Below, in pieces: positions 3,615 to 30,779 of a stretch of 64,000 nt of DNA. The notes under the pieces were generated by a model. The model did no database searches. It saw only the letters and a list, made by a program, of their open reading frames with translations, and was not told the DNA's origin. The stretch comes from Bacteroidales bacterium. GTDB taxonomy: Bacteria; Bacteroidota; Bacteroidia; Bacteroidales; F082. The translations under genes were made by a program, and so were the position numbers. Every line of letters begins with the position of its first letter. Positions within the stretch are counted from its first letter, which is position 1. The stretch covers positions 2,161-66,160 of the forward strand of contig JAFUVT010000006.1 of assembly GCA_017477425.1 (NCBI GenBank). The letters are read 5' to 3'.

Positions 3615-4370
3615 TTAGATATGCTCCTCAAAGCCTCTGAAGTGAACATTCAGTTCATGCAGATGCTCCAACAGCGTTCCCAGCGGGGTTCCGGCAGTCA
3701 TCTTGGCAAAGGCGTTGACATCCTTGGGGAAGCACTTACCACCATAACCGAACTTACCGTCAGGGCCGGGGACGTAAGTGTGGGTATCGTTGATATAGCC
3801 AGAAAGCAGCACGCCCGTGTGCACCTTGCGCCAGTCAGCCCCCATTTGCTCGCAGTACTCGCGACAGGCGTTGAAATAGGTGACCTTATAGGCCCCGAAC
3901 ACGTTGTGCATGTACTTGGTGAGCTCTGCCTCTAACGGGGTCATGACGGTAAACTTCTTGCCCACGAAGATCTTGGTGAGCAGTTCGTGGGCTCCGGTGA
4001 AGACCATGGTCTGCTTGCGGAAGTCCTCAAGGTGTGTACGCTCGGTGAGGAACTCGGGCATGTAGCATACCTGATGGCCGTTATCCTTGGAGAGGCGGTC
4101 ACTGGTGCCGGGAAGGATGGTGGTGCGCACGAAGACGGGCACATCGGGGAGCTTGGTGATGAGTTCCTTCATCAGCGTGAGGTCCTGCGTGCCGTCGTCC
4201 TCGGTGGGGACGTGGATCTGCAGGAACGCGATATCGATACCACTCAGGTCATCGTTGTAACCCTTGGGAGGGTCGCTGATGAACAGTTTACACTCGGGGT
4301 TGTTATGCTCCAACCAGTCTTTCAAGGCTCCGCCTACGAAGCCGCATCCGATAATTCCAACGTTAATCAT
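3615..4370 (-). CDS. Short (251 aa) UDP-glucose/GDP-mannose dehydrogenase-family-like protein, copy 1
   Basis: N-terminal Rossmann motif VGIIGCGFVGGAL and the catalytic-Cys motif GYGGKCFPKDVNAF of nucleotide-sugar dehydrogenases. It lacks the usual C-terminal UDP-binding domain. Paralog of 13073..13828. Confidence 0.6.
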   Translation of the reverse strand: MINVGIIGCGFVGGALKDWLEHNNPECKLFISDPPKGYNDDLSGIDIAFLQIHVPTEDDGTQDLTLMKELITKLPDVPVFVRTTILPGTSDRLSKDNGHQVCYMPEFLTERTHLEDFRKQTMVFTGAHELLTKIFVGKKFTVMTPLEAELTKYMHNVFGAYKVTYFNACREYCEQMGADWRKVHTGVLLSGYINDTHTYVPGPDGKFGYGGKCFPKDVNAFAKMTAGTPLGTLLEHLHELNVHFRGFEEHI

Positions 4371-4446
4371 TGTGTGTATGTTTTAGTGTTTATTGTTTTA
4401 GTTAGTTGTTGTTTGGTTAAGAAGAATCAAGGGATATGAATCATGG

Positions 4447-4643
4447 GACGGTTCCTCGATCACTTTTCTCTATTCTAACTTGTTAATCACTCCATAAGTT
4501 ACTCTTGTGAGCCGTGAGAGCTGGCGCAGACCAACACCCAGTTCCAAGTAGCTCATGATAAGCTCGTTTCTCTTATCTTTCTCCAGTTCATGCACCTTTA
4601 TCGGGTCTGCTGCAGAATCGTAGAATCGGGAGACGGTTCCTTG
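4447..4643. repeat. 197-bp direct repeat, copy 1 (partner at 7495..7692)
   Basis: Aligned by eye to 7495..7692, about 90+% identical. Both copies begin and end with GACGGTTCCT. Contains most of the small HTH ORF 4470..4676. Confidence 0.8.
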
Positions 4644-4777: not shown

Positions 4778-6298
4778 CTAATCCTTACTATCTTCTGCAA
4801 CGACATAAACGGTTCCCCTTCCTTCACCCCTACGCTCTATTCTTTTCTTTTCAACAAGTGATTTCATCAACCGCTCTGCCGTCTTTTTCTCCAACTTAAG
4901 ATATTCTTCTACATTTTTTCTGGTTGTTTCTCCGTTTAAACGGATAAAGTCAAATGCTTTCCTTTCTTTCTCTGTCAACTTATCTTCACTGACACCCTCA
5001 GTGTTTCGTGACAAAACAAACGAAAGATAAGGTGCTTCCCATTTTGCTACAGGCAGAGGAAAGCTATATACATCAGGCAAATCCCGCATGGTTTTGAACC
5101 CCAAACCTCTCTGCTCAGACAAATTCATAACACCAAACACGAACATCATTCTGGGATTACGACTTATCGTTGGAGCCGAAAAGTTGTTTATTTGTTCCAG
5201 AGTTATAGGTTCTACAGGGTATCCAGGCGACTTTACAACTATCTCACGACTACTGATTGTAAGATAGATTGGAGAACCAGAAATCTCATACTGGCGATGT
5301 ATGATGGCATTGATAAGTACTTCTCTTATCACCTTCAAAGGATAATCATATATGGGTTGTCTTTCCGGGTGCGACCGATCTATTTGCTTGCCTATTTTTT
5401 GTTCATACCATTGATAAGCATTGTCAGGTTGCTTCACCAATGGGCCTACAATGTCGACAATATCACCTTCAGTGCCATCATCATTTATGAATGTAGCCTT
5501 GATGATTGCATTGGGGAACGACACTTCAGGATGCTTTCCGAACAACAATAATCCTGTACCGGACGGAACATACCCATTTTTGGTCGAGACCAAAATGCCA
5601 AATTGTGTAAGCAGCTGCATACATTCCCTCTCACCAAACTTTACATCCCATCCCGCTTTATCCAAAAAGGCTTGAACAAGTTCCGTATCAAGCGATTCAA
5701 GGGTACAATTCTTGACAGGTGCATCAAGCGTGCCTTCTGCCTCTTTCATCTTTTTAGATTCATCTTTTGCGAGTAGGCTCCTTTCGTTTGCCGCATTAAG
5801 GAATTCCGCATTACATTTCCTGATTTCTTCTTGAAGATCTCTGTCAAACAGAGCAACTTCAACGCCATGCGTTTTAAGGTGGTCACAGCCTTTGCCACTG
5901 ACAGTCGGGTCTGGATCTTCTATACCATAATACACTTTGGCAATACGTGCATTAGTAATGCGTTCAGCACACGAAAGCTTCGGTGACTTCCTTGCTCCTG
6001 GAGCACATGGCTCAAGAGTGGCAAATAGTATAGCCCCAGTAAGATTTTGGTCTCTACACTTGCGTTCAATGAGAGTATATTCTGCATGGTCTCCCTCTCG
6101 CAGTTCACCCCGGTAGGCTGTTTCTATGGTTCCATCTGGTTTGACAATAAGTGCACCAACTTTGGGCGTTGGCTTTCCGTCTTCCCTAACTTCGGCTACG
6201 GAGTTCTTCATTACATTCACCACCTCCTCCATATACCTTCTAATCTGTTCCTTCGTCAGTTCTATCATAGTATGTATTAATGTATTGTTACAAATCAA
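4778..6298 (-). CDS. Fusion protein: RibD/CDA-fold zinc deaminase + AlbA_2-like region + HATPase_c_4 (RecG-C-like) + C-terminal winged helix
   Basis: The deaminase has the HAE (DHAEYTLIE) and PC...C (TLEPCAPGARKSPKLSCAE) zinc motifs. GLLLFGKHPEVSFPNAIIKA is AlbA_2-like. REVLINAIIHRQYEISGSPIYL...RNPRMMFVFGVMNLSEQRGLGFKTM matches HATPase_c_4. The C-terminus FDFIRLNGETTRKNVEEYL...RGEGRGTVYVV is a wHTH. The start may be M11 (6268). Confidence 0.7.
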   Translation of the reverse strand: MICNNTLIHTMIELTKEQIRRYMEEVVNVMKNSVAEVREDGKPTPKVGALIVKPDGTIETAYRGELREGDHAEYTLIERKCRDQNLTGAILFATLEPCAPGARKSPKLSCAERITNARIAKVYYGIEDPDPTVSGKGCDHLKTHGVEVALFDRDLQEEIRKCNAEFLNAANERSLLAKDESKKMKEAEGTLDAPVKNCTLESLDTELVQAFLDKAGWDVKFGERECMQLLTQFGILVSTKNGYVPSGTGLLLFGKHPEVSFPNAIIKATFINDDGTEGDIVDIVGPLVKQPDNAYQWYEQKIGKQIDRSHPERQPIYDYPLKVIREVLINAIIHRQYEISGSPIYLTISSREIVVKSPGYPVEPITLEQINNFSAPTISRNPRMMFVFGVMNLSEQRGLGFKTMRDLPDVYSFPLPVAKWEAPYLSFVLSRNTEGVSEDKLTEKERKAFDFIRLNGETTRKNVEEYLKLEKKTAERLMKSLVEKKRIERRGEGRGTVYVVAEDSKD

Positions 6299-6382: not shown

Positions 6383-7291
6383 TCATATTTGCAATAAGCC
6401 CCCAAAATCACTTTTCATTCGTTCCAAGGCAAAAGATTCCGATTCTGCCACCTCTCCCAGTGTAGTGTTAACAACTGCCTTGATTGACAAAGAAGGGTCT
6501 TCTGAAAGTAGCCGTATAAACACCTTTGCAATTTTGGAATCCACTCTATATGAAGCAGTGAATTGTTGACCAAATTCAAGTTTTACTGGATAGCTGTTGG
6601 TATCTATTACTGTTAATATGCTGAAAGCATCAGCATTTCCATCAAAGGGTCTTGACATTTTAAAGAAAGGCTCTTGAAAGTATCGATGTTCCTTTGATGA
6701 GTTGGTGACAGTTACCCTGATTTGCAATCCTCTTTTGCCAGAATACATATAATTATATGTCTCAAACACATGGTAAAAACTTAAATAAACTAAGGCCACA
6801 GTATCTTTTCTTTCTCCATGTTTCAATGTTGTCGATCTAAGTACACTAGGAAGCGGCCTCTCGTTTTGCAGAGCCTCTACCATCTCCTTGATAACAGTAT
6901 CGTATTGACTATCATCCGTCATGTCATCGCCTTTCCTGCCTTGAAGAATCGGTGGAAATGACGTCTCGAAAGTTCCTGCCCGTAAGACGGGGTAGTATTT
7001 TGTCGTATCAATATCATTCATCATCTCTGCACCGATAATCGACTCCTCAAATGCCACCCCTTTGCCTGTTTCGGCTTTTTGCTTGTATTGAGGCGTACCA
7101 ATAACCAGAACTTTATCCGCCTTCGACAAGCCAAGCTCCATAAAACGAGTGAAAGAAGAACCCTTGGGCATGTACTGGTCGAGAAGGATTTCAAAACCAC
7201 CCAAGGCCGACAAATCATCGGCAAATTTCTTCACCCATGCTTTATGCTCTTCACTATCGTGTGAATATGAAATAAAAATCACTTTAGCCAT
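6383..7291 (-). CDS. SEFIR/TIR-like domain protein with an uncharacterised ~160-aa C-terminal domain
   Basis: The N-terminus KVIFISYSHDSEEHKAWVKKFADDLSALGGFEILLDQ...VLVIGTPQYKQKA...GVAFEESII...YYPVLRAG matches the bacterial SEFIR/TIR_2 pattern. AT-rich. Confidence 0.7.
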   Translation of the reverse strand: MAKVIFISYSHDSEEHKAWVKKFADDLSALGGFEILLDQYMPKGSSFTRFMELGLSKADKVLVIGTPQYKQKAETGKGVAFEESIIGAEMMNDIDTTKYYPVLRAGTFETSFPPILQGRKGDDMTDDSQYDTVIKEMVEALQNERPLPSVLRSTTLKHGERKDTVALVYLSFYHVFETYNYMYSGKRGLQIRVTVTNSSKEHRYFQEPFFKMSRPFDGNADAFSILTVIDTNSYPVKLEFGQQFTASYRVDSKIAKVFIRLLSEDPSLSIKAVVNTTLGEVAESESFALERMKSDFGGLLQI

Positions 7292-7494
7292 ATTTCTATT
7301 ATTTCAGTTACAAAACACAGATCGGGGTCTGGCTTTTTGCTTGTTTTCCCTGTTATTGCCCTAAGCTATTTATTTCTTTAAAAGTCTCTGTCAAGCGTTC
7401 AACCTACCAGGAGCCGACTTTCCCATGAGCTTTTCTTCAGATGTTCGGACATCTATCTGAATATTAAAAATTGGATCATGAATCAGAATCAGAA

Positions 7495-7692
7495 GACGGT
7501 TCCTCGATCACTCTTCTCCAATCTAACTTGTTAATCACTCCATAAGTTACTCTTGTGAGCCGTGAGAGCTGGCGCAGACCAACACCCAGTTCCAAGTAGC
7601 TCGTGATAAGCTCGTTTCTCTTATCTTTTTCCAGTTCTTGCACCTTTATCGGGTCTGCTGCAGAATCGCAGAATCAGGGGACGGTTCCTTGA
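7495..7692. repeat. 197-bp direct repeat, copy 2 (degenerate copy of the HTH ORF, no ATG start)
   Basis: Aligns with 4447..4643. The reading frame is retained (..DPIKVQELEKDKRNELITSYLELGVGLRQLSRLTRVTYGVINKLD..), but both Met start codons of copy 1 (M1 and the internal M41, which reads ITSYLELG here) and the stop are changed. Confidence 0.8.
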
Positions 7693-7706: not shown

Positions 7707-7997
7707 TCAGTTATCCTTCAAAGCAGAAAGTATGCCCACTCTTATGCTAGTTTTTATCTGTTCTGTTGCCGAAACGATAACGACTTTTTCAAAAAAGCTA
7801 GCTTGCCCCATTTTTTTACAAAGCTGTCCAAATATCTGTTTGGCACAGAAAGTGGCCATTGTTTTAACATCTTGCATGTCAATTGTTACAGAACCTTCTT
7901 CTTCAATGCAATCGCTAATTGTCTTGTATATTCTACTGCCCAGTTCTTCGTCACTGATTATAGTTCCAAAATCTTTTATTATTATTATCGTGTTCAT
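7707..7997 (-). CDS. 96-aa STAS-like (DUF4325-like) protein, cassette A
   Basis: Small alpha/beta-type sequence with an IDMQDV motif followed by Thr49. Its start overlaps the stop of the upstream ATPase gene (ATGA). Same length and motif layout as 11652..11942. Confidence 0.6.
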   Translation of the reverse strand: MNTIIIIKDFGTIISDEELGSRIYKTISDCIEEEGSVTIDMQDVKTMATFCAKQIFGQLCKKMGQASFFEKVVIVSATEQIKTSIRVGILSALKDN

Positions 7998-8938
7998 TGA
8001 AAATTGATTAATAAGTCATTTAATTGTTCATTGTTTTTTTCGATATCATCAATCGTAATCGGATTAGTCAAAAAGAGTTTTACATACACTATTGTCCCAT
8101 GCCATGTCGCAGAAGTGTAAAAACGCGTTTTGCCTGCCATGTTCTCATAGCAATACTCTTCTGACCGCAATAAGAATCGGCTTCCCGATTTGGTGACTAT
8201 TTCGTTGATAAGCCACAACCCATACCCCATGTGGTTGCTACCTTTTTTTGAGGTTACGTCTTTTTTTAATGCCATCTTCAACGCATCTTCTTTTTTGCAA
8301 CGCGGAAATGCATCTGTAATGCTTTTTACAACCCCTTCGCCAGAATCGGCACATGCAATCTCAATCATTTCCTGGTTTCCATGGGCAACAATAACAGACT
8401 TCGAGTCGCCCAAGGCATGAGCCCAGAAGTTCAAAAACATCTCTGAAAAAACAGTGAAGATCATCGCGTTGACCTTATGATTATGATAATAACCCTCAAT
8501 CTTCCGCGAATAATCGTTATTCAAGTAGTCGGAAGAGCTGGTCTCCTTCAGTAATGCCATAGGAGCGATGATAAAATCATCGGAAACACTTACCTGTAAG
8601 TTTTTGTATTGTCTATCTGAATCCTTGTTTTTCTTCAAGTCGTCTATTAAATTTTTGAACCCATAGTAGGCCACTCGGTCTCTAATAGTTCTGTTTTCTT
8701 CATAATTCAGAAGACAAGGGTTGAAAAAACACTTGTTGACAACTGAATAATCCAAAAACTTATATAGGATAAGCAGCCCTAATAAGTCAAGTTCGACCAC
8801 GTCTTGAAAATCCAAGTAGAAAGAATGCTTTTGTAATTGTTTGTATCTATAAAAACAGCCTAACTTTCTTATGATTTCGTCATCGTAGTTTTTGACCATC
8901 CTGCTTGGAACCTTTAATATTGTAGGGCTATTGGCCAT
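7994..8938 (-). CDS. GHKL (histidine-kinase-like/SpoIIAB-RsbW-like) ATPase with an N-terminal STAS-like region, cassette A
   Basis: Bergerat-fold boxes: N box SEMFLNFWAHA, G1 ADSGEGV, G2 GYGLWLINEI. The N-terminal LDFQDVVELDLLGLLILYKF is STAS-like. Overlaps both neighbouring genes. Confidence 0.65.
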   Translation of the reverse strand: MANSPTILKVPSRMVKNYDDEIIRKLGCFYRYKQLQKHSFYLDFQDVVELDLLGLLILYKFLDYSVVNKCFFNPCLLNYEENRTIRDRVAYYGFKNLIDDLKKNKDSDRQYKNLQVSVSDDFIIAPMALLKETSSSDYLNNDYSRKIEGYYHNHKVNAMIFTVFSEMFLNFWAHALGDSKSVIVAHGNQEMIEIACADSGEGVVKSITDAFPRCKKEDALKMALKKDVTSKKGSNHMGYGLWLINEIVTKSGSRFLLRSEEYCYENMAGKTRFYTSATWHGTIVYVKLFLTNPITIDDIEKNNEQLNDLLINFQ

Positions 8939-9422
8939 AGTACAATTTATGGTATTCGTCGAATAATTTTTCTTCCTTTTTTAGATCTTTTTTTGTTAAA
9001 TCTGAATTAATCCTTTTATAATAGTCCAGAATGGTTATTGAATGATGATATATTTTCTTTGAATAGAAAATCCTGTTTTTCGACATAAGACATTCCACAT
9101 TGGAAATGTTATCTAGCAATGTATGTTCTTCTCCCTTTGTAAACAGCGATATCTTTTCCAATTTTTCAAACAATTCAGCTTCTTTTTCAATTGATAATTC
9201 CGTGATTTTCCTTGTCCTATAATGCTCGTTTTCCTTCTTGCCGTTACTTCTATCCAAGAAAAACTTCACTATTATCAAAAGAAGATTTATCAGAACTATA
9301 ACAAGAATCCATATAGAAGAACCTGTCCAACTGCTATTACTTACTTCATTTGATACCGAATCTGAATTCATAGAAGTAAATTGCTCAACGCCTATTTGTA
9401 TTAAAACCAGTAAATTGTTCAT
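8928..9422 (-). CDS. Single-pass membrane protein with a charged helical cytoplasmic tail, cassette A
   Basis: 164 aa. One TM helix (IWILVIVLINLLLIIVKFFL) followed by a K/E-rich helical region. 11-nt overlap with the downstream ATPase gene. No homology recognised. Confidence 0.5.
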   Translation of the reverse strand: MNNLLVLIQIGVEQFTSMNSDSVSNEVSNSSWTGSSIWILVIVLINLLLIIVKFFLDRSNGKKENEHYRTRKITELSIEKEAELFEKLEKISLFTKGEEHTLLDNISNVECLMSKNRIFYSKKIYHHSITILDYYKRINSDLTKKDLKKEEKLFDEYHKLYYGQ

Positions 9423-9618
9423 TGTTAATATTTTTGCATTATTTCGTTATTGTTTATGGTTTTTGAACCAAAAGTAGTCCATTTTTCCGTTTTCCCAAAA
9501 TTCCCAGTCGCACCTGCCAAGCGCAGGAGGACACAGAAGACTAGCCGTTAGCTCCCCATCCTTCTTCAAGGCTCCGCCCCGTTAATCACATTTCGTGGCG
9601 ACAAATGGCTGTTGATCA

Positions 9619-9690
9619 ATAAATTGATTCAGAATCCATTTTTTGGTCCTTTTTGGTCCTTTTGGTCTGAAACGTCTTCTGCAAATATAG
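9619..9690 (-). promoter_or_regulatory. Promoter-leader module A (TATATTTG -7 box plus conserved leader hairpin)
   Basis: The minus strand reads TATATTTGCAGAAGAC..TTCAGACC..GGACCAAAAAGGACCAAAAAATGGATTCTGAATCAATTTAT. The -7 box is the reverse complement of 9682..9689. The same module occurs at 12851..12920 and 14021..14090. Confidence 0.5.
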
Positions 9691-9742
9691 TAAAAAAACT
9701 GGGTCATAAACAAACAAATTATTGGTCGGTTTTTTGCTTTTC

Positions 9743-9806
9743 AAGCCGCCTCCCACAGATGCCCGCTCTCCCATGGGCCCACGTTGGCATGACATGGGAG
9801 GCTAAC
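9743..9806. repeat. 64-bp hairpin repeat element, copy a (type 1 centre)
   Basis: CAAGCCGCCTCCCACAGATGCCCGCTCTCCCATGGGCCCACGTTGGCATGACATGGGAGGCTAAC. The arms GCCTCCCA/TGGGAGGC and ATGCC/GGCAT can pair. Confidence 0.8.
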
Positions 9807-9856
9807 TGTCAGCCATCCGTTAATTCTTTGGACACAGCGCTTCTTAATGATAAACT

Positions 9857-10072
9857 TCATACCTTTGCGTATTCCTCATGGATGGCAGCGTGAACCATAG
9901 CACGTGCCTCTTCAATACTCATTGTCTCTTCATCTTCCATTCGCATTTGCTGCATACGGTGGTCAACAAGTTCCTGTGCCCATAGGCGAATGGCTGCCGT
10001 GGTGTCCAGCTCCGGGCGCATGTCCCGAAGCGCAGCCTCATCGACGTTTATACTTACCATGCACATAGTCAA
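9857..10072 (-). CDS. Hypothetical 71-aa acidic protein
   Basis: GC3-rich ORF. A TAACTTTG -7 box (reverse complement of 10093..10100) lies about 20 nt upstream of its ATG. No confident family assignment. Confidence 0.35.
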   Translation of the reverse strand: MTMCMVSINVDEAALRDMRPELDTTAAIRLWAQELVDHRMQQMRMEDEETMSIEEARAMVHAAIHEEYAKV

Positions 10073-10164
10073 ATCGATTTATGTTTGTTTTTGCAAAGTT
10101 ACTACTTTTCAATCTCATTCAGAGGAATCAAGGAATCAGGGGAAGATTCCTTTGTCCATTTTTT

Positions 10165-10229
10165 CAAGCCGCCTCCCATAGATGCCCGCTCTCACACAAG
10201 CCTGCATCGGCATGACATGGGAGGCTAAC
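10165..10229. repeat. 64-bp hairpin repeat element, copy b (type 2 centre)
   Basis: CAAGCCGCCTCCCATAGATGCCCGCTCTCACACAAGCCTGCATCGGCATGACATGGGAGGCTAAC. Ends 3 nt before the epimerase stop codon. Confidence 0.8.
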
Positions 10230-10232
10230 CGA

Positions 10233-11276: not shown

Positions 11277-11326
11277 GCTTTGTTTTTGTTAAGAATCAAG
11301 AATCAGGGGTCGGTTCCTTGATCCGC

Positions 11327-11463
11327 TATCCGCCTCCCCCAGATACCCGCTCTCCCTCGGGCCCACGTTGGCATGACATGGGAGGCTAACTTCCAACTGA
11401 ACAACTGAACAACTCCCAACTAAAATACAGCTTCGCTCCGTCAGTCACATTCCGTGGTGACAA
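11327..11463. repeat. Composite repeat: hairpin element copy c + (CAACTGAA)2 + conserved leader block
   Basis: TATCCGCCTCCCCCAGATACCCGC...GGCATGACATGGGAGGCTAAC, then TTCCAACTGAACAACTGAACAACTCCCAACTAAAA, then CAGCTTCGCTCCGTCAGTCACATTCCGTGGTGACAA. Collinear with 13859..14006. Confidence 0.8.
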
Positions 11464-11651: not shown

Positions 11652-11942
11652 TCATGCAGTAACCCCATACTTGACAATATAATCTCTAAGACGCATAGCT
11701 TGTTGTTTGGTAATCATTGTAAATACCATATTATTCTTCAACTTGTCTACCCCCCACTCGTCAATAAGTCGGCCTATAGACACATTCAAGAAGACCGAAG
11801 GCAATGCGGTAACGTCTGACATGTCAACAATAACCTTATCAGAATCCTCCATTCCTTTCACAATCTGTGAATAAAACAAGTTGCCCGCTTCGGGTAGCAG
11901 TGTCGAGGAATCCATTATGTCCTTTAATACTATTGTACACAT
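11652..11942 (-). CDS. 96-aa STAS-like (DUF4325-like) protein, cassette B
   Basis: VDMSDV motif at residues 39-44 followed by Ser49, the same layout as 7707..7997. Lies downstream of the GHKL ATPase gene. AT-rich. Confidence 0.6.
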   Translation of the reverse strand: MCTIVLKDIMDSSTLLPEAGNLFYSQIVKGMEDSDKVIVDMSDVTALPSVFLNVSIGRLIDEWGVDKLKNNMVFTMITKQQAMRLRDYIVKYGVTA

Positions 11943-12026
11943 GTTTTTTATCTATTTAGTTAAAAAAATCAAATTCATCAATAATTTCCTCATCATCCAT
12001 TTGAGACAAGTCTATCTCATAATATA

Positions 12027-12839
12027 TTAGTGCCCAGGGAAAGACATCTCACAATAAAAGCCTTCAATAATTCCATCATGCTTGTAAACCAATCCGTTAT
12101 GGCTAAATATCCTTGCTTCCTTCGCTGGAGCTATGATAATACTTAATCCCATACCTTTGTTTCTATCCGTCGATTTCACCGTGAAATTATCTTCCAGAGC
12201 TTTAAGGATAGCATCTTTATCGTTTGTTATATCTTTGTCAAAATCACTTACAGATTGCGCAATTCCTATGCCAAAATCGGAAACTGCAACATGTAAAATG
12301 CTTGTTTCTTTGTCATATTGAATCAAAGAAAACGCATTCCCTTTAGCATGTGCATGATCAAAAACATTATAATAAGCTTCAACCAAACCAACAGAAACTA
12401 CACTTAAATCCTTGTTTGTAAAATATGTTCTTCTTAAGTATTCCTCTACTCGTTTTGCATATAAGTCTTTCTCGGGTTCTGTAATTCTCCACAAATTGAA
12501 AACGCTCTCATGAGTTGGTGCTTCTACATAATTCTTCCCTCCTCTCCAATATTCCGAAAACCCCAAATCCTTATATATATACTGAAAAACATCTTGGTTA
12601 TTCTTAGAAATAAACACATTCATTTTAAGGTCAATCAAAAAATGAATCAAGCAAGCAAGAGTAACCAAATGAAATGGTTTGATTTTATCAGGAGCGATAG
12701 CTGTATCAAAGTCAAATACAATGTCATGAGTTGATATGACACCACTATGGCAATTATACTCATTATGAACTTTTGTTATGGTCTCAAGCCAATAACTTCT
12801 TTCGGTATTTTGAAACACTATCTTCGTTTCTCTTTTCAT
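12027..12839 (-). CDS. GHKL (SpoIIAB/RsbW-like) ATPase with an N-terminal STAS-like region, cassette B
   Basis: N box LVEAYYNVFDHAHAKG, G1 VSDFGIGIAQSV, G2 DRNKGMGLSIIIA. The N-terminal IVFDFDTAIAPDKIKPFHLVTLACLIHFL is STAS-like. 270 aa. Confidence 0.65.
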   Translation of the reverse strand: MKRETKIVFQNTERSYWLETITKVHNEYNCHSGVISTHDIVFDFDTAIAPDKIKPFHLVTLACLIHFLIDLKMNVFISKNNQDVFQYIYKDLGFSEYWRGGKNYVEAPTHESVFNLWRITEPEKDLYAKRVEEYLRRTYFTNKDLSVVSVGLVEAYYNVFDHAHAKGNAFSLIQYDKETSILHVAVSDFGIGIAQSVSDFDKDITNDKDAILKALEDNFTVKSTDRNKGMGLSIIIAPAKEARIFSHNGLVYKHDGIIEGFYCEMSFPGH

Positions 12840-12850
12840 AGCATCACTAG

Positions 12851-12920
12851 ATAAGTTGACTCAGAATCCATTTTTGGTCCATTTTGGTCCATTTCATCTG
12901 AATTGTCTTCCGCAAATATA
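12851..12920 (-). promoter_or_regulatory. Promoter-leader module B
   Basis: The minus strand reads TATATTTGCGGAAGACAATTCAGATGAAATGGACCAAAATGGACCAAAAATGGATTCTGAGTCAACTTAT and ends 12 nt before the ATG at 12839. The -7 box is the reverse complement of 12913..12920. Confidence 0.5.
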
Positions 12921-12974
12921 GTGAGAAAAGCTGTGACACAAACAAATTTTTTGGGTGGTTTTTTTGTGTTTTCC

Positions 12975-13036
12975 TATCCGCCTCCCCTAGATGCCCGCTC
13001 TCACACAAGCCTACGTCGGCATGACACGGGAGGTTG
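12975..13036. repeat. 64-bp hairpin repeat element, copy d (type 2 centre)
   Basis: TATCCGCCTCCCCTAGATGCCCGCTCTCACACAAGCCTACGTCGGCATGACACGGGAGGTTGC. Confidence 0.8.
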
Positions 13037-13072
13037 CGGACAATGGTTCCAAGCAGCGGAATAGACTTGAAA

Positions 13073-13828
13073 CTAAATGTGTTCCTCCACGCCCCTGAAA
13101 TGCACATTCAACTCATGAAGATGCTCCAAAAGTGTTCCGAGCGAAGTGCCCTCGGTCATCTTGGCGAAGGCGTTCACGTCCTTCGGGAAGCACTTGCCAC
13201 CGTAGCCGTATTTGCCATCGGGACCAGGGACGTAGGTATGCGTGTCGTTGATATAGCCAGAGAGCAACACACCCGTGTGCACCTTGCGCCAGTCGGCACC
13301 CATCTGCTCGCAGTACTCACGGCAGGCGTTGAAATAAGTCACCTTGTAGGCGCCGAAGACGTTGTGCATGTACTTGGTCAGCTCGGCCTCCAACGGGGTC
13401 ATCACGGTGAACTTCTTGCCGACGAAGATCTTGGTGAGCAGCTCGTGGGCACCGGTGAAGACCATCGTCTGCTTCTTGAAGTCTTCGATGAAGGTGCGCT
13501 CGGTCAGGAACTCGGGCATGTAGCACACCTGATGATGGGTCTCCCGCGAAAGCATCTCGCTGGTGCCTGGAAGGATGGTGGTGCGCACAAACACGGGCAC
13601 GTCCGGAAGCTTGGTGATGAGCTCCTTCATCAGCGTCAAGTCCTGCGAACCGTCGTCCTCGGTGGGGACATGGATCTGCAGAAAAGCAATGTCGATATTA
13701 CTCAAGTCATCATTATACCCCTTGGGCGGGTCGCTGATGAACAGTTTGCACTCTGGGTTGTTGTGTTCCAACCAGTCCTTGAGGGCTCCGCCTACGAAGC
13801 CACATCCGATAATTCCAACGTTAATCAT
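13073..13828 (-). CDS. Short (251 aa) UDP-glucose/GDP-mannose dehydrogenase-family-like protein, copy 2
   Basis: Same length as 3615..4370 and differs at only about 15-20 residues. The DNA differs mostly at third codon positions, so both copies appear to be under purifying selection. Confidence 0.6.
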   Translation of the reverse strand: MINVGIIGCGFVGGALKDWLEHNNPECKLFISDPPKGYNDDLSNIDIAFLQIHVPTEDDGSQDLTLMKELITKLPDVPVFVRTTILPGTSEMLSRETHHQVCYMPEFLTERTFIEDFKKQTMVFTGAHELLTKIFVGKKFTVMTPLEAELTKYMHNVFGAYKVTYFNACREYCEQMGADWRKVHTGVLLSGYINDTHTYVPGPDGKYGYGGKCFPKDVNAFAKMTEGTSLGTLLEHLHELNVHFRGVEEHI

Positions 13829-13858
13829 ATTTTTATTAAATTGTTATTTTTCAAAATC

Positions 13859-14006
13859 CAAGCCGCCCCCCCCACAGATGCCCGCTCTCCCTCGGGCCGA
13901 GGCTGGCATGACATGGGAGGTTAACTTCCAACTGAACAACTGAACAACTGAACAACTCCCAACTAAAACACAGCTTCGCCAGGTCGGTCACATTCCATAA
14001 CGACAA
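13859..14006. repeat. Composite repeat: hairpin element copy e + (CAACTGAA)3 + conserved leader block
   Basis: Collinear with 11327..11463 but carries one extra octamer unit. Confidence 0.8.
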
Positions 14007-14020
14007 CTCCCTGTTTTCCA

Positions 14021-14090
14021 ATAAATTGATTCAGAATCCAACATAGGTTCTTATTGGCTTTATCTTTCTGAATACGTTCCCGCAAAAATA
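14021..14090 (-). promoter_or_regulatory. Promoter-leader module C
   Basis: The minus strand reads TATTTTTGCGGGAACGTATTCAGAAAG...GGATTCTGAATCAATTTAT (ATTCAGAA/TTCTGAAT stem). The -7 box is the reverse complement of 14083..14090. Confidence 0.45.
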
Positions 14091-14106
14091 GAAAAAAAAT
14101 AAATAC

Positions 14107-16446: not shown

Positions 16447-17745
16447 TTAATCCCTTTTGAAAATATCACGCGTGTATACCTTTTCAATGACGTTGTCGAG
16501 GCAGGCGTCGTAGCGGTTGGCGATGATGGCCTGGCTCATGGCCTTGAACTTGGTCAAGTCGTTGACCACAAGGCTACCGAAGAATGTGGTGCCATCGGGC
16601 AAGGTGGGCTCGTAGATGATGACCTCGGCGCCTTTGGCTTTGATGCGTTTCATCACGCCTTGGATGCTGCTCTGGCGGAAGTTGTCGCTGTTCGACTTCA
16701 TCGTCAGGCGATAGACACCGATGACGCAATGGCGTTCCTGTGAGGCGTCGTATTGTCCCTGGTCGTAGTAGTCGTAATAGCCCGCTTTCTTCAGCACCTG
16801 GTCGGCGATGAAGTCCTTGCGGGTGCGGTTGCTGTCGACGATGGCGCGGATGAGGTCCTCGGGCACGTCCTCGTAGTTGGCCAGCAGTTGCTTGGTGTCC
16901 TTGGGCAGGCAGTAGCCACCGTAACCGAAGCTGGGATTGTTGTAGTGGTTGCCGATACGGGGGTCGAGGCAGATGCCGTCGATGATGGCTTGGGTGTCGA
17001 GACCTTTCACCTCGGCATAGGTGTCCAACTCATTGAAATAGCTCACACGCAAGGCGAGGTAGGTGTTGGCGAAGAGCTTCACGGCCTCGGCCTCCTTCAT
17101 GCCCATGAAGAGCGTGGGGACGTCTTCCTTGATGGCACCCTGCTGCAATAAGGCGGCAAACTGGTGCGCTTTGGCCTCAAGGTCGACGCTGACCATCTTC
17201 ATGATGGCTTCGTTTTCCTCATCGTAACCGGCAATTTTCTTCGGGAAGCCCACGATGATGCGGCTGGGGTAGAGGTTGTCGTAGAGGGCCTTGCTCTCAC
17301 GCAGGAACTCGGGTGAAAAAAGCAGGTTGAACTTCTTGACGCCCTTGGCGGCGTATTTGACATACAAGCCACGGGTGTACCCCACGGGGATGGTGCTCTT
17401 GATGACCATTACCGCATCGGGGTTGACGCTGAGAATCAGGTCGATGACTTCTTCCACGTGCGAGGTGTCGAAGAAGTTCTTCTGCGGGTCGTAGTTGGTC
17501 GGGGCGGCGATGACGACGAACTCGGCGTCTTTATAGGCCGTTGCGCCATCGAGGGTGGCCGTCAGGTCGAGTTCTTTCTCGGCGAGGTATCTCTCGATGT
17601 ATTCGTCCTGGATGGGCGACTTCCGCTGGTTGATGAGGTCGACCTTTTCGGGGACGACATCCACGGCGGTGACATGGTTATGTTGCGCCAACAAGGTGGC
17701 GATGCTCAGGCCGACATAGCCTGTGCCTGCTACTGCGATGTTCAT
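16447..17745 (-). CDS. ugd: UDP-glucose 6-dehydrogenase (full-length nucleotide-sugar dehydrogenase)
   Basis: [34 protein letters not shown] catalytic Cys motif, 432 aa. Confidence 0.85.
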
Positions 17746-29036: not shown

Positions 29037-30554
29037 TTACCCCAAAACCTTCACGCCAGCATCGATGCGCTTGAGGGTCTCTTCCTTGCCCAAGAGTTCA
29101 AGGATCTCGCCAATGTGGGGGCCTTTGCCGGCGCCGACCACCATCAAGCGGAGACCATTCATCACGAGGCCCATGTTGAGCTCGTTGCTGGTAATCCAAT
29201 TGTTCAAGGTCTCGTCAATGTTGGCCAAGCTGAAAGGCTCGATGCCGTTGATGACTTCCTTCACCTTGAGCATCGTCTCGGCGCTGTTTTCCTTCCAGCG
29301 CTTCTTGACGGTGACGGGATCGTATTCCGTGGGCGCCTCGAAGAAGAAGAAGCTCTGGTCCCAGATTTCCTTCACGAAGTTCACTCTATCTTTCACCAAG
29401 CCAGCCACTTTCACGGCAAAGTCGAGCGAGGTCTCGATGCCTTTTTCGGCCTTCAGCCAAGCCTGGTAGTCCTTGCCGACTTCCTCGTTCGACTTGCGCA
29501 TCAGCCACTCGTGGTTGAACCACTTGGTTTTCTCCACATTGAACTTGGCGCCGCTCTTGCTGCAACGCTCCAACGAGAAGGCTTGGATGAGTTCGTCCAT
29601 GGTAAAGATTTCTTGCTCGGTGCCCGGATTCCAACCCAGCAGTGCCAGCATGTTGATGAAAGCTTCGGGATAGTAACCCGACTGCTTGTAGCCCGAAGCC
29701 GTGTCGCCAGTCTTCGGGTCTTGCCAGAACAACGGGAAGACGGGGAAACCGAGGCGGTCGCCGTCGCGCTTGCTGAGTTTGCCGTTGCCATCAGGCTTGA
29801 GCAGCAGGGGCAGGTGGGCGAACTGCGGAGCTTCCCAACCGAAAGCCTCGTAGAGCATCACGTGAAGCGGCATCGAAGGCAGCCATTCCTCGCCACGGAT
29901 GACGTGGCTGATTTGCATCAGGTGGTCGTCAACAATGTTGGCCAAGTGGTAGGTGGGCATGCCGTCGCTCTTGAACAAGACCTTGTCGTCGAGGGTGTTG
30001 GTCTGCACATGCACCTCGCCACGAATCAGGTCGTGCATGACGATTTCGCGGTCCTCGGGAATCATGAAACGCACCGTGTAAGGCGTGCCGTCAGCGATGA
30101 GTTTGTCAACCTCTTCCTTGCTCATCGTCAGGCTGTTGCGCAGGTGCTTGCGGCTTTGGCAGTTGTAGATGAAGGTTTGCTTGTTGGCTTCGGCCTCCTT
30201 GCGGTATTTGTCCAACTCCTCGGCCGTGTCGAAGGCGATGTAGGCGCAGCCTTTGGCCAGCAGCTCGTCGCTGTATTGTTTGTAGAGGTGTTTACGGTTG
30301 CTTTGCTTGTATGGACCGAATTCGCCGCCCACATAGTCGCTTTCGTCGAACTTGATGCCGCACCAGTCGAGCGACTCGACGATGTATTGTTCGGCACCCG
30401 GCACGAAGCGGGTTTGGTCGGTGTCCTCGATGCGGAGAATCATCTTGCCGCCGTTCTTTTTGGCAAACAGATAGTTATATAACGCTGTGCGCACGCCCCC
30501 GATGTGCAAAGGGCCCGTCGGGCTGGGGGCGAATCTTACTCTTACTTCTTTCAT
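29037..30554 (-). CDS. gltX: Glutamate--tRNA ligase
   Basis: [33 protein letters not shown] (HIGH) and KLSKR. The start is set at M73 of the track ORF, because the longer form would overlap the promoter and tRNA-Cys. Confidence 0.9.
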
Positions 30555-30647
30555 TGTGTTATGGTTTTTCGGCTGCAAAAATACGGATTCCAAATGATTT
30601 AGGGCACATAAAATGAAAAAAGCCCACTGAAATTCAGCAGGCTTTTG

Positions 30648-30718
30648 AGGTACCTGGCGGACTCGAACCGCCGTCCCCGGTTTTGCAGACCGGTCCCTAA
30701 CCGCTCGGGCAAGGTACC
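30648..30718 (-). tRNA. tRNA-Cys (GCA)
   Basis: Folded by hand. Acceptor GGTACCT/AGGTACC, anticodon arm CCGGT-CTGCAAA-ACCGG, T arm GGCGG-TTCGAGT-CCGCC, U73 discriminator. CCA is not encoded. A TATCTTTG box lies upstream (reverse complement of about 30727..30734). Confidence 0.85.
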
Positions 30719-30779
30719 CTTTTGCGGCTGCAAAGATACAACTTTTTGCTGAACCGCAACATATTTTCATTTAAATTTT

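Follow-up and report, generated by a model that had tools for sequence, protein, structure and literature searches.

What might a kinase and a small STAS-domain protein control when the gene coupled to them encodes neither a sigma factor nor a nuclease, but a membrane protein? The question is raised by a three-gene cassette in the DNA of a Bacteroidales bacterium (GenBank assembly GCA_017477425.1, GTDB family F082). The cassette lies at positions 7707 to 9422 of a stretch of 64,000 nucleotides (contig JAFUVT010000006.1, forward-strand positions 2,161 to 66,160), and this whole stretch is called the window below. The cassette is very probably a kinase-STAS conflict module, related to VapKSC and CapKS. 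What is new is probably that a module of this kind is coupled to a membrane protein instead of to a nuclease.

The original prediction for this DNA, made from the letters alone, described three minus-strand open reading frames (ORFs) that overlap by 11 and 4 nucleotides (nt) and so form one coupled unit. The sequence confirms this, with the ORFs running 9422..8928, 8938..7994 and 7997..7707. The parts of the cassette are:

8928..9422, minus strand: gene 1, a single-pass membrane protein of 164 amino acids (aa), the candidate effector

8928..8938, minus strand: overlap of genes 1 and 2, 11 nt, ATGGCCAATAG, read from the sequence

7994..8938, minus strand: gene 2 ('K'), a CapK/VapK-like kinase of 314 aa, with a STAS-like domain and a SpoIIAB-like GHKL domain

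7994..7997, minus strand: overlap of genes 2 and 3, ATGA, 4 nt, read from the sequence

7707..7997, minus strand: gene 3 ('S'), a DUF4325 STAS protein of 96 aa, the predicted antagonist, and substrate of the kinase

7851..7853, minus strand: codon of Thr49 of S, the predicted phospho-acceptor

The coupling is also seen elsewhere. A scan of one genome per species, covering 185,579 species, yields 28 loci, and in most of them the junctions overlap or abut. Between the upstream ORF and K this holds for 25 of 27 loci (gap of -29 to +2 nt), and between K and S most loci have overlaps of -4, -1 or -10 nt. Some gene callers start K at Met14 (P0001, 301 aa). The 314-aa start has the better support: of 48 homologues, at least 90% have Met1, and the segment following it can be aligned.

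The two relatives are described in a single paper (PMC13373217; Chambers et al., EMBO J 2026). CapK is a kinase of about 360 aa with a helix-turn-helix (HTH), a STAS and a GHKL domain, and CapS is a repressor of about 180 aa consisting of a STAS and a winged HTH (wHTH) domain. Single-stranded DNA (ssDNA) activates CapK, which then phosphorylates a conserved serine of the CapS STAS domain, and a downstream immune operon is de-repressed (PMC13373217). VapKSC is a three-gene toxin-antitoxin system, made up of the STAS-GHKL kinase VapK, the STAS antitoxin VapS of 116 aa, and the PIN toxin VapC. VapS inhibits VapC by binding it, and their interface buries Ser48; this residue is an experimentally supported phospho-site, and the phosphomimic S48E frees the toxin. 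Residues 94-116 of VapS form a C-terminal helix that reaches the active site of the toxin and is required for inhibition. The vapKSC genes give about 2 logs of protection against phage Bas42, for which D28 of VapC, S48 of VapS and F54 of VapK are needed. This last residue contacts ssDNA, as does W68 of CapK (PMC13373217). The share of vapKSC loci with a defence gene inside 10 kb was put at 36%.

The word 'transmembrane' does not occur in that paper. The literature searched has next to nothing on DUF4325, and no paper in it joins partner-switching with phage defence.

By sequence comparison and predicted fold, the cassette has both of the features at the core of VapKSC and CapKS: a STAS-GHKL kinase, and a STAS protein with a conserved acceptor position.

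The second of these can be read from S. It matches Pfam family DUF4325 above the gathering cut-off (31.3 bits versus 23, E = 1.6e-7), and contains no other domain. Its motif SMATFCAKQIFG is nearly invariant in the family. A profile of this family, searched against the PDB, has a single match, which is Escherichia VapS (9z7o_A, E = 2.9e-4). In the ungapped HMMER alignment, Thr49 of S falls on chain position 66 of 9z7o_A, or Ser48 in the native numbering of VapS. All 24 family members have the threonine. The original prediction had called the 96-aa protein STAS-like and singled out Thr49, and both parts of that claim hold. S ends at residue 96, and members of its family measure 91-108 aa.

K is harder to place by sequence. 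It matches Pfam HATPase_c and HATPase_c_2 only below their cut-offs (E around 7e-4), and nothing in PADLOC or NCBIfam significantly, again with sub-cut-off matches only. Its profile finds only a histidine kinase at chance level among PDB sequences (E = 0.46), so that a comparison of folds was needed. The AlphaFold2 model of K has a predicted local distance difference test score (pLDDT) of 87 and a predicted template-modelling (TM) score of 0.87. The best Foldseek matches in the PDB are SpoIIAB structures 1l0o and 1tid (probability 1.0, TM score 0.68-0.70 on the target). The Bergerat-fold boxes that the original prediction had picked out are invariant or nearly so in the 48 homologues. This goes for the N box (E166, N170, H174), the G1 box (D198, G200, G202) and the G2 box (H236-W242). 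That the protein has the GHKL fold is in agreement with all of this.

The first 130 residues of K were also modelled separately (pLDDT 83). The top Foldseek matches are STAS proteins: MlaB, anti-sigma-factor antagonists, the STAS domains of SulP proteins, RsbS and RsbV. The scores are weak in terms of E (0.06-0.7), with probabilities up to 0.97 and TM scores of 0.55-0.68 on the target. An hhalign comparison of this domain with the DUF4325 family finds no similarity (12 columns, probability 0.8%). The earlier claim of a STAS-like N-terminal stretch is thus supported by the predicted fold, but not by any profile similarity to DUF4325. Given the Foldseek matches of both models, K joins a STAS-like domain, which runs from residue 1 to about residue 125, to a SpoIIAB-like GHKL, or Bergerat, kinase domain (about 135-295).

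Profile comparison then ties this kinase domain to the known systems. The K family profile aligns with VapK by hhalign over residues 154-290, which is the whole GHKL domain, with the N, G1 and G2 boxes in register (probability 92.8%, E = 3.9e-7). With CapK of E. roggenkampii the alignment starts in the linker between the domains and takes in the N and G1 boxes (probability 87.5%, E = 3.6e-6). The relationship with VapK is remote, since a pairwise BLASTP comparison is not significant (E = 1.2).

How close is the cassette to VapKSC? Both are three-gene operons with a STAS-GHKL kinase and a small STAS protein that has an invariant serine or threonine at the start of helix 2. Both are scattered and mobile, and at times found near other defence genes. 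The profile matches of K and S point to VapK and VapS, with Thr49 landing on Ser48. However, there is no PIN or VapC gene inside the cassette or adjoining it, and the third protein, an orphan, passes the membrane once. S lacks the inhibitory C-terminal helix, the similarity in sequence is remote, and the hosts are mostly Bacteroidota. The cassette is therefore not VapKSC, having no PIN toxin and no such helix on its STAS protein.

Nor is it CapKS, because its kinase has no HTH and its STAS protein no wHTH. The STAS-GHKL core is shared with CapK, and in the window the cassette also sits upstream, on the same strand, of two likely defence genes, which encode a bSEFIR protein and a deaminase. The genes downstream of the triplet are different in every other locus, so these two are not conserved with it. 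The model of K opens with the first STAS-like strand at residue 6, leaving no room for an N-terminal HTH, in line with a length of 314 aa instead of about 360. S is likewise much shorter than CapS, and cannot be a repressor in the manner of CapS, since it has no wHTH domain to bind DNA with.

The classical partner-switching pairs SpoIIAB-SpoIIAA and RsbW-RsbV provide the best structural matches of the kinase domain (1l0o, 1tid, 6m37), and their STAS proteins have a phospho-acceptor at the equivalent position. The cassette lacks a cognate sigma factor and a PP2C phosphatase, its kinase has an additional STAS-like domain, and a membrane protein is attached to the two; the distribution is sporadic and mobile. 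The idea of a SpoIIAB/STAS-type pair outside sigma-factor control, attached to a membrane protein, is supported by the fold, by the VapK and VapS profile matches and by the varied genomic contexts. On the mechanism a correction is needed: VapKSC, the relative, works by kinase-controlled release of an antitoxin, and not by sigma-factor partner switching.

The original prediction also did not recognise the cassette as a named defence system. This is right as far as PADLOC-DB v2.0.0 is concerned, where none of the three proteins has a match at E up to 0.1. That database dates from 2023, before VapKSC. Named relatives do exist, in the form of VapKSC and CapK/CapS (PMC13373217). An earlier published case, in which a DUF4325 protein is the small partner of a toxin-like protein, is similar, and is probably the association that was later named VapKSC; here too the cassette differs by having no PIN protein.

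This leaves the membrane protein. It has no significant match in Pfam, PADLOC, NCBIfam, PHROGs or the PDB, in searches with the sequence and with the family profile. There is one hydrophobic segment (residues 37-55, approximately), and hydropathy in windows of 19 residues reaches its peak of 2.94 there, at residue 37. A short acidic N-terminal tail precedes this transmembrane helix, and a conserved helical domain of about 105 aa follows it. This domain is predicted to be cytoplasmic, because 21 of 23 homologues have a positively charged stretch behind the helix. In a few relatives (P0240, P0241 and P0265) a signal peptide and an extended external part, an ectodomain of 50-80 aa, come before the helix, which confirms the topology with the N-terminus outside and the C-terminus inside. 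The N-terminal tail, probably extracytoplasmic, is the least conserved region of the family. Position 46 within the helix is polar in all 23 homologues (asparagine in 19, aspartate or serine in the others), and D133 and Y134 are invariant in the cytoplasmic domain of the aligned homologues.

A profile search of 1.84 billion representative proteins, for which a narrower alignment of the membrane protein was used, found 105 relatives, nearly all of them 145-168 aa long. Every family member with a genomic context that was examined sits in the triplet. A 430-aa 'fusion' that matches the profile (P0215) appears to be chimeric and was discarded as a clue to function.

The triplet also holds together from the side of the kinase. 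It is complete in 26 of the 27 informative genome loci, with the remaining locus having a truncated first gene, and it is intact in all metagenomic contexts examined. At the genome loci it consists of a single-pass membrane protein of 145-174 aa, a kinase of about 310 aa and a STAS protein of 91-99 aa, and in most cases the junctions overlap. Most hosts belong to the Bacteroidota, from the Bacteroidales, Flavobacteriales, Cytophagales, Chitinophagales and Sphingobacteriales, plus Balneola. Outside this phylum there is one metagenome-assembled genome from the Spirochaetota, and one fragment at a contig end that is labelled Bosea. There is no match among the plasmids of PLSDB, and one weak partial match among GenBank phages.

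In composition the cassette is foreign to its surroundings. It had been described as AT-rich compared to the sugar genes around it, which is correct: its GC content is 35.1%, versus 49.5% for the whole window, and GC at the third codon position is 0.33-0.45 in its genes, versus 0.67-0.82 in the epimerase and ugd genes. As a unit it is self-contained and moves by horizontal transfer.

Its contexts vary a lot. Four independent Bacteroidales contexts (the window, L004, L006 and L009) are within capsule or polysaccharide loci, with the triplet oriented like the sugar genes. In one locus the triplet is part of a defence island with GmrSD and AAA_15/AAA_21 (L005), and in another it is in an integrated element with an integrase, PIN and AbiU2 (L041). 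A YoeB toxin adjoins it twice (L008 and L040), and in L043 it is found among plain housekeeping genes. In the 21 genome loci where neighbours were compared, which contribute 140 neighbouring proteins, no family recurs: among the 25 most frequent of 141 families listed, the top Pfam family is seen in only 3 of the 140. There is therefore no conserved fourth partner, and homologues are not consistently found beside sigma, anti-sigma or transporter genes. The expectation of a defence-island neighbourhood is borne out in part. The variable contexts do include defence islands, but the enrichment is modest, with 15 PADLOC family matches among the 140 neighbours.

How might such a unit work? We regard it as evenly balanced whether the cassette operates as an abortive-infection or toxin-antitoxin system in the way of VapKSC, in which phosphorylation of the STAS protein would release a membrane effector. 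In the resting cell, unphosphorylated S would bind the cytoplasmic domain of the membrane protein, its presumed partner, and hold it inactive. An infection or stress signal would activate K; this putative trigger may be ssDNA, as it is for CapK and VapK. K would then phosphorylate Thr49, upon which S would let go. The freed membrane protein could self-associate through its asparagine-containing helix and damage the integrity of the membrane, and this presumed toxicity would arrest growth before phage progeny are made. The anti-phage effect might extend to lysogens, where a prophage-borne module would protect its host against other phages.

Several observations weigh against this mechanism. No toxin or pore domain can be recognised in the membrane protein. 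S has no counterpart of the C-terminal helix that VapS needs to inhibit VapC, so the mode of inhibition cannot be the same in detail. The order of the genes is effector-K-S, where VapKSC has vapK-vapS-vapC. In isolate genomes the neighbours are mostly housekeeping genes, and PADLOC matches are few. Finally, the external tail of the membrane protein, being variable and sometimes expanded, suits the role of sensor or anchor no less than that of effector.

This last point leads to the alternative that survives best, although we think it unlikely. Here the membrane protein would be non-toxic, and would tether K and S at the inner membrane as a sensor or anchor that reports on what happens at the envelope, for instance adsorption of a phage, injection of its DNA or stress on the membrane. 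K would phosphorylate S, and possibly other host or phage proteins, and the phosphorylation or the freed S would be the effector step. An external tail that varies, and that in some homologues is expanded behind a signal peptide, is what one might look for in a sensor; the conserved cytoplasmic domain is as expected of a docking surface, and a missing toxin-like domain is no surprise. Yet in the characterised relatives it is the kinase itself that senses ssDNA, with the third protein as effector. The polar residue in the helix, kept as asparagine in 19 of 23 homologues, suggests a regulated association between helices, which is more typical of effectors, and there is no further conserved gene that could serve as the output. 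A statement that spans these options, namely that the K-S switch gates a novel family of membrane effectors or else receives envelope input by way of the membrane protein's variable external tail, is tentative, and possible rather than probable.

It is improbable that the triplet is an accessory of phages, with a holin-like or exclusion membrane protein whose action in lysis or superinfection exclusion is timed by K and S for the benefit of the phage. Chromosomal copies, including the one in the window, would then be remnants or captured morons. Carriage by phages is real enough: 16 of 18 matching IMG/VR viral contigs have the complete triplet, often near the contig end, and there it adjoins a large terminase subunit or a CI-like repressor, while phrog_3364 matches K over its full length (E = 4e-22). 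Against this, the window and many genome loci have no phage genes near the triplet, and in the viral contigs examined it is never within a lysis cassette. Defence systems are equally expected on prophages, so this alternative largely overlaps with the defence reading.

Lower still we place a classical partner switch or capsule regulator, in which K would sequester a transcription or sigma factor encoded elsewhere, S would relieve this, and a capsule operon would be tuned; the fold of the K domain is indeed closest to the anti-sigma factors SpoIIAB and RsbW, and the four capsule contexts have the triplet on the strand of the sugar genes, but many copies are outside capsule loci, in prophages among other places, those capsule loci also hold genes that have nothing to do with capsules (23S_rRNA_IVP, PDDEXK_3, GIY-YIG, SocA_Panacea), a mere 28 loci among so many species and a foreign base composition do not suit a regulator, K and S have no Pfam HTH or wHTH match, the model of K has no extra N-terminal domain, and the supposed partners are missing. 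The original prediction noted that a sigma factor and a PP2C phosphatase are missing here, and in the window neither lies within some 10 kb of the triplet. Nor does either recur among the 25 most frequent of 141 families listed for the 21 genome loci. Elsewhere, one lineage has a primary sigma-70 two genes from the triplet, the sole sigma factor seen near it. PP2C phosphatases (SpoIIE, RsbU, RsbP) are absent from the annotated neighbours in the window and from the Pfam-annotated contexts.

The original prediction gave the cassette its own promoter and a conserved leader. Two candidates for a Bacteroidetes-type -7 box (TAnnTTTG) are found by pattern match:

9469..9476, minus strand: proximal box TACTTTTG, 54 nt upstream of the ATG of gene 1

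9682..9689, minus strand: distal box TATATTTG, 267 nt upstream of the ATG of gene 1, inside a 59-nt repeat

The distal box is the predicted one, and it is present (9689-9682). The leader is a different matter. It is a 59-nt repeat with three copies in the window (9640-9698, 12871-12929 and 14041-14099), and none of the eight other loci checked has it ahead of the triplet. The leader and its promoter are therefore a property of the host locus and not of the cassette, and the repeat was rejected as part of the cassette family.

The host locus is a busy place. Two paralogues of the UDP-glucose dehydrogenase family have several low-GC insertions between them, of which the cassette is one. The units between these paralogues are the second K-S pair described below, an epimerase gene, a 71-aa ORF, the triplet, and the bSEFIR and deaminase genes. 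The main features are:

3615-4370 and 13073-13828, minus strand: UDP-glucose/GDP-mannose dehydrogenase paralogues of 251 aa, direct repeats that bracket the low-GC region

4778-6298, minus strand: deaminase-Schlafen-like gene, 506 aa, a likely defence gene downstream of the cassette

6383-7291, minus strand: bSEFIR gene, 302 aa, a likely defence gene downstream of the cassette (PADLOC bSEFIR, E = 2.6e-40)

9717-9807, 10140-10230, 11301-11391, 12949-13039 and 13836-13926, all in a single orientation: five copies of an imperfect hairpin repeat of about 65 nt

The 506-aa protein combines a cytidine/dCMP deaminase, a Schlafen/AlbA-like HATPase_c_4 domain (which matches PADLOC models associated with prokaryotic Argonautes) and a C-terminal winged helix. 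The block of bSEFIR and deaminase genes is bracketed by a 206-nt direct repeat, 94% identical, at 4438-4643 and 7486-7691. One copy, at 7476-7643, carries a 55-aa ORF that has a helix-turn-helix-like stretch, and matches nothing in Pfam, PADLOC, NCBIfam or PHROGs.

The 251-aa paralogues are 84.5% identical over 755 nt. They have no C-terminal UDP-binding domain, unlike the full-length ugd at 16447-17745. They were considered as gene fragments that mark insertions, but this was rejected: they are intact short paralogues, each with its own GxGxxG motif. In another organism (L004), a copy of 251 aa comes after the triplet as well. The paralogues may be recombination anchors for the exchange of the cargo between them. 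In a closely related strain (L001, 13508-16362), an AAA ATPase and an S8 peptidase lie beyond the second paralogue, where the window has a glycosyltransferase and a flippase, and from this it follows that the cargo at this site differs between strains.

The hairpin repeat is confined to one 4-kb stretch of the 64-kb window, with 5 matches versus 0.02 expected. Its copies are positioned just after or between individual gene units. The core on the minus strand reads GCCTCCCATGTCATGCC…GGCATCTGTGGGAGGC, and both stem and loop are conserved. Copies also exist in related strains (L001-L003 and L046) and on about ten metagenome contigs. The repeat has no match in Rfam, no T-run on the transcribed strand, and unremarkable folding z-scores. 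The idea that it is an integron attC site is not supported, given these z-scores, the missing Rfam match, and ends that depart from the R''/R' consensus. Possible roles are those of a cassette boundary, an element like the repetitive extragenic palindromes (REPs), or a site for binding protein. The 71-aa ORF (9857-10072, minus strand) has the repeat on both sides; it is kept in L001-L003, and has no match in Pfam, NCBIfam or PHROGs.

About 3 kb from the cassette there is a second kinase-STAS pair (11652-12839, minus strand). It consists of a STAS-GHKL protein of 270 aa (12839..12027; HATPase_c_2, E = 1.4e-6) and a DUF4325 protein of 96 aa (11942..11652) with Ser49 at the acceptor position. The STAS-GHKL and DUF4325 core is that of the main cassette, and the GC content is similarly low at 34.8%. 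VapK and VapS are nearer to this pair than to the main cassette (BLASTP E = 2.5e-7 and 5e-15), but the pair comes with neither a membrane protein nor a VapC/PIN toxin. The two kinases of the window are 27% identical over 110 aa. Relatives of the second pair are also two-gene units, one of them in the same capsule hotspot (L046), another in a prophage of Bacteroides salyersiae, where a DUF2971 gene adjoins it (L048).

Close to its 3' end, around 12027-12035 on the minus strand, the second kinase gene has a frameshift. Homologues measure 291-307 aa, and their last 25-30 residues (…TLIYYEIDLSQMDDEEIIDEFDFFN) are encoded in another frame just past the stop. The frameshift may be real, because the same truncated protein (P0067) is found on seven contigs, and L001 and L002 have the identical 270-aa ORF.

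Away from all this, a tRNA gene at 30648-30718 (minus strand) is the only Rfam match in the window at the gathering threshold. It lies inside a listed ORF of 577 aa (29037..30770), so at least the 5' part of this ORF is non-coding as listed.

Taken as a whole, the region resembles a hotspot where conflict genes gather within a polysaccharide locus of the Bacteroidales. The position of the cassette in a capsule locus, beside a bSEFIR gene, a deaminase-Schlafen-like gene and a second kinase-STAS pair, points to a hotspot for defence cargo in the polysaccharide operons of Bacteroidales.

Kinase-STAS control of immunity was shown only in 2026, with as outputs the activation of an immune operon (CapK/CapS) or the release of a nuclease toxin (VapKSC). 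The cassette would extend this logic to a third output, a membrane protein, and to the Bacteroidota and their prophages. Carriers include gut Bacteroidales, where few defence systems have been tested. With three genes in 1.7 kb and clear point mutants to make (N170A in K, T49A and T49E in S), the cassette offers a simple test of phospho-release of a membrane effector.

If the membrane protein is indeed an effector, or a route for envelope input, this would be the first kinase-STAS immune module that is wired to the membrane. In the case of envelope input, the module would respond to the adsorption of a phage or the injection of its DNA, rather than to ssDNA. It would also mean that a phospho-STAS 'antitoxin' can control a PIN nuclease, a transcriptional repressor and a membrane protein alike.

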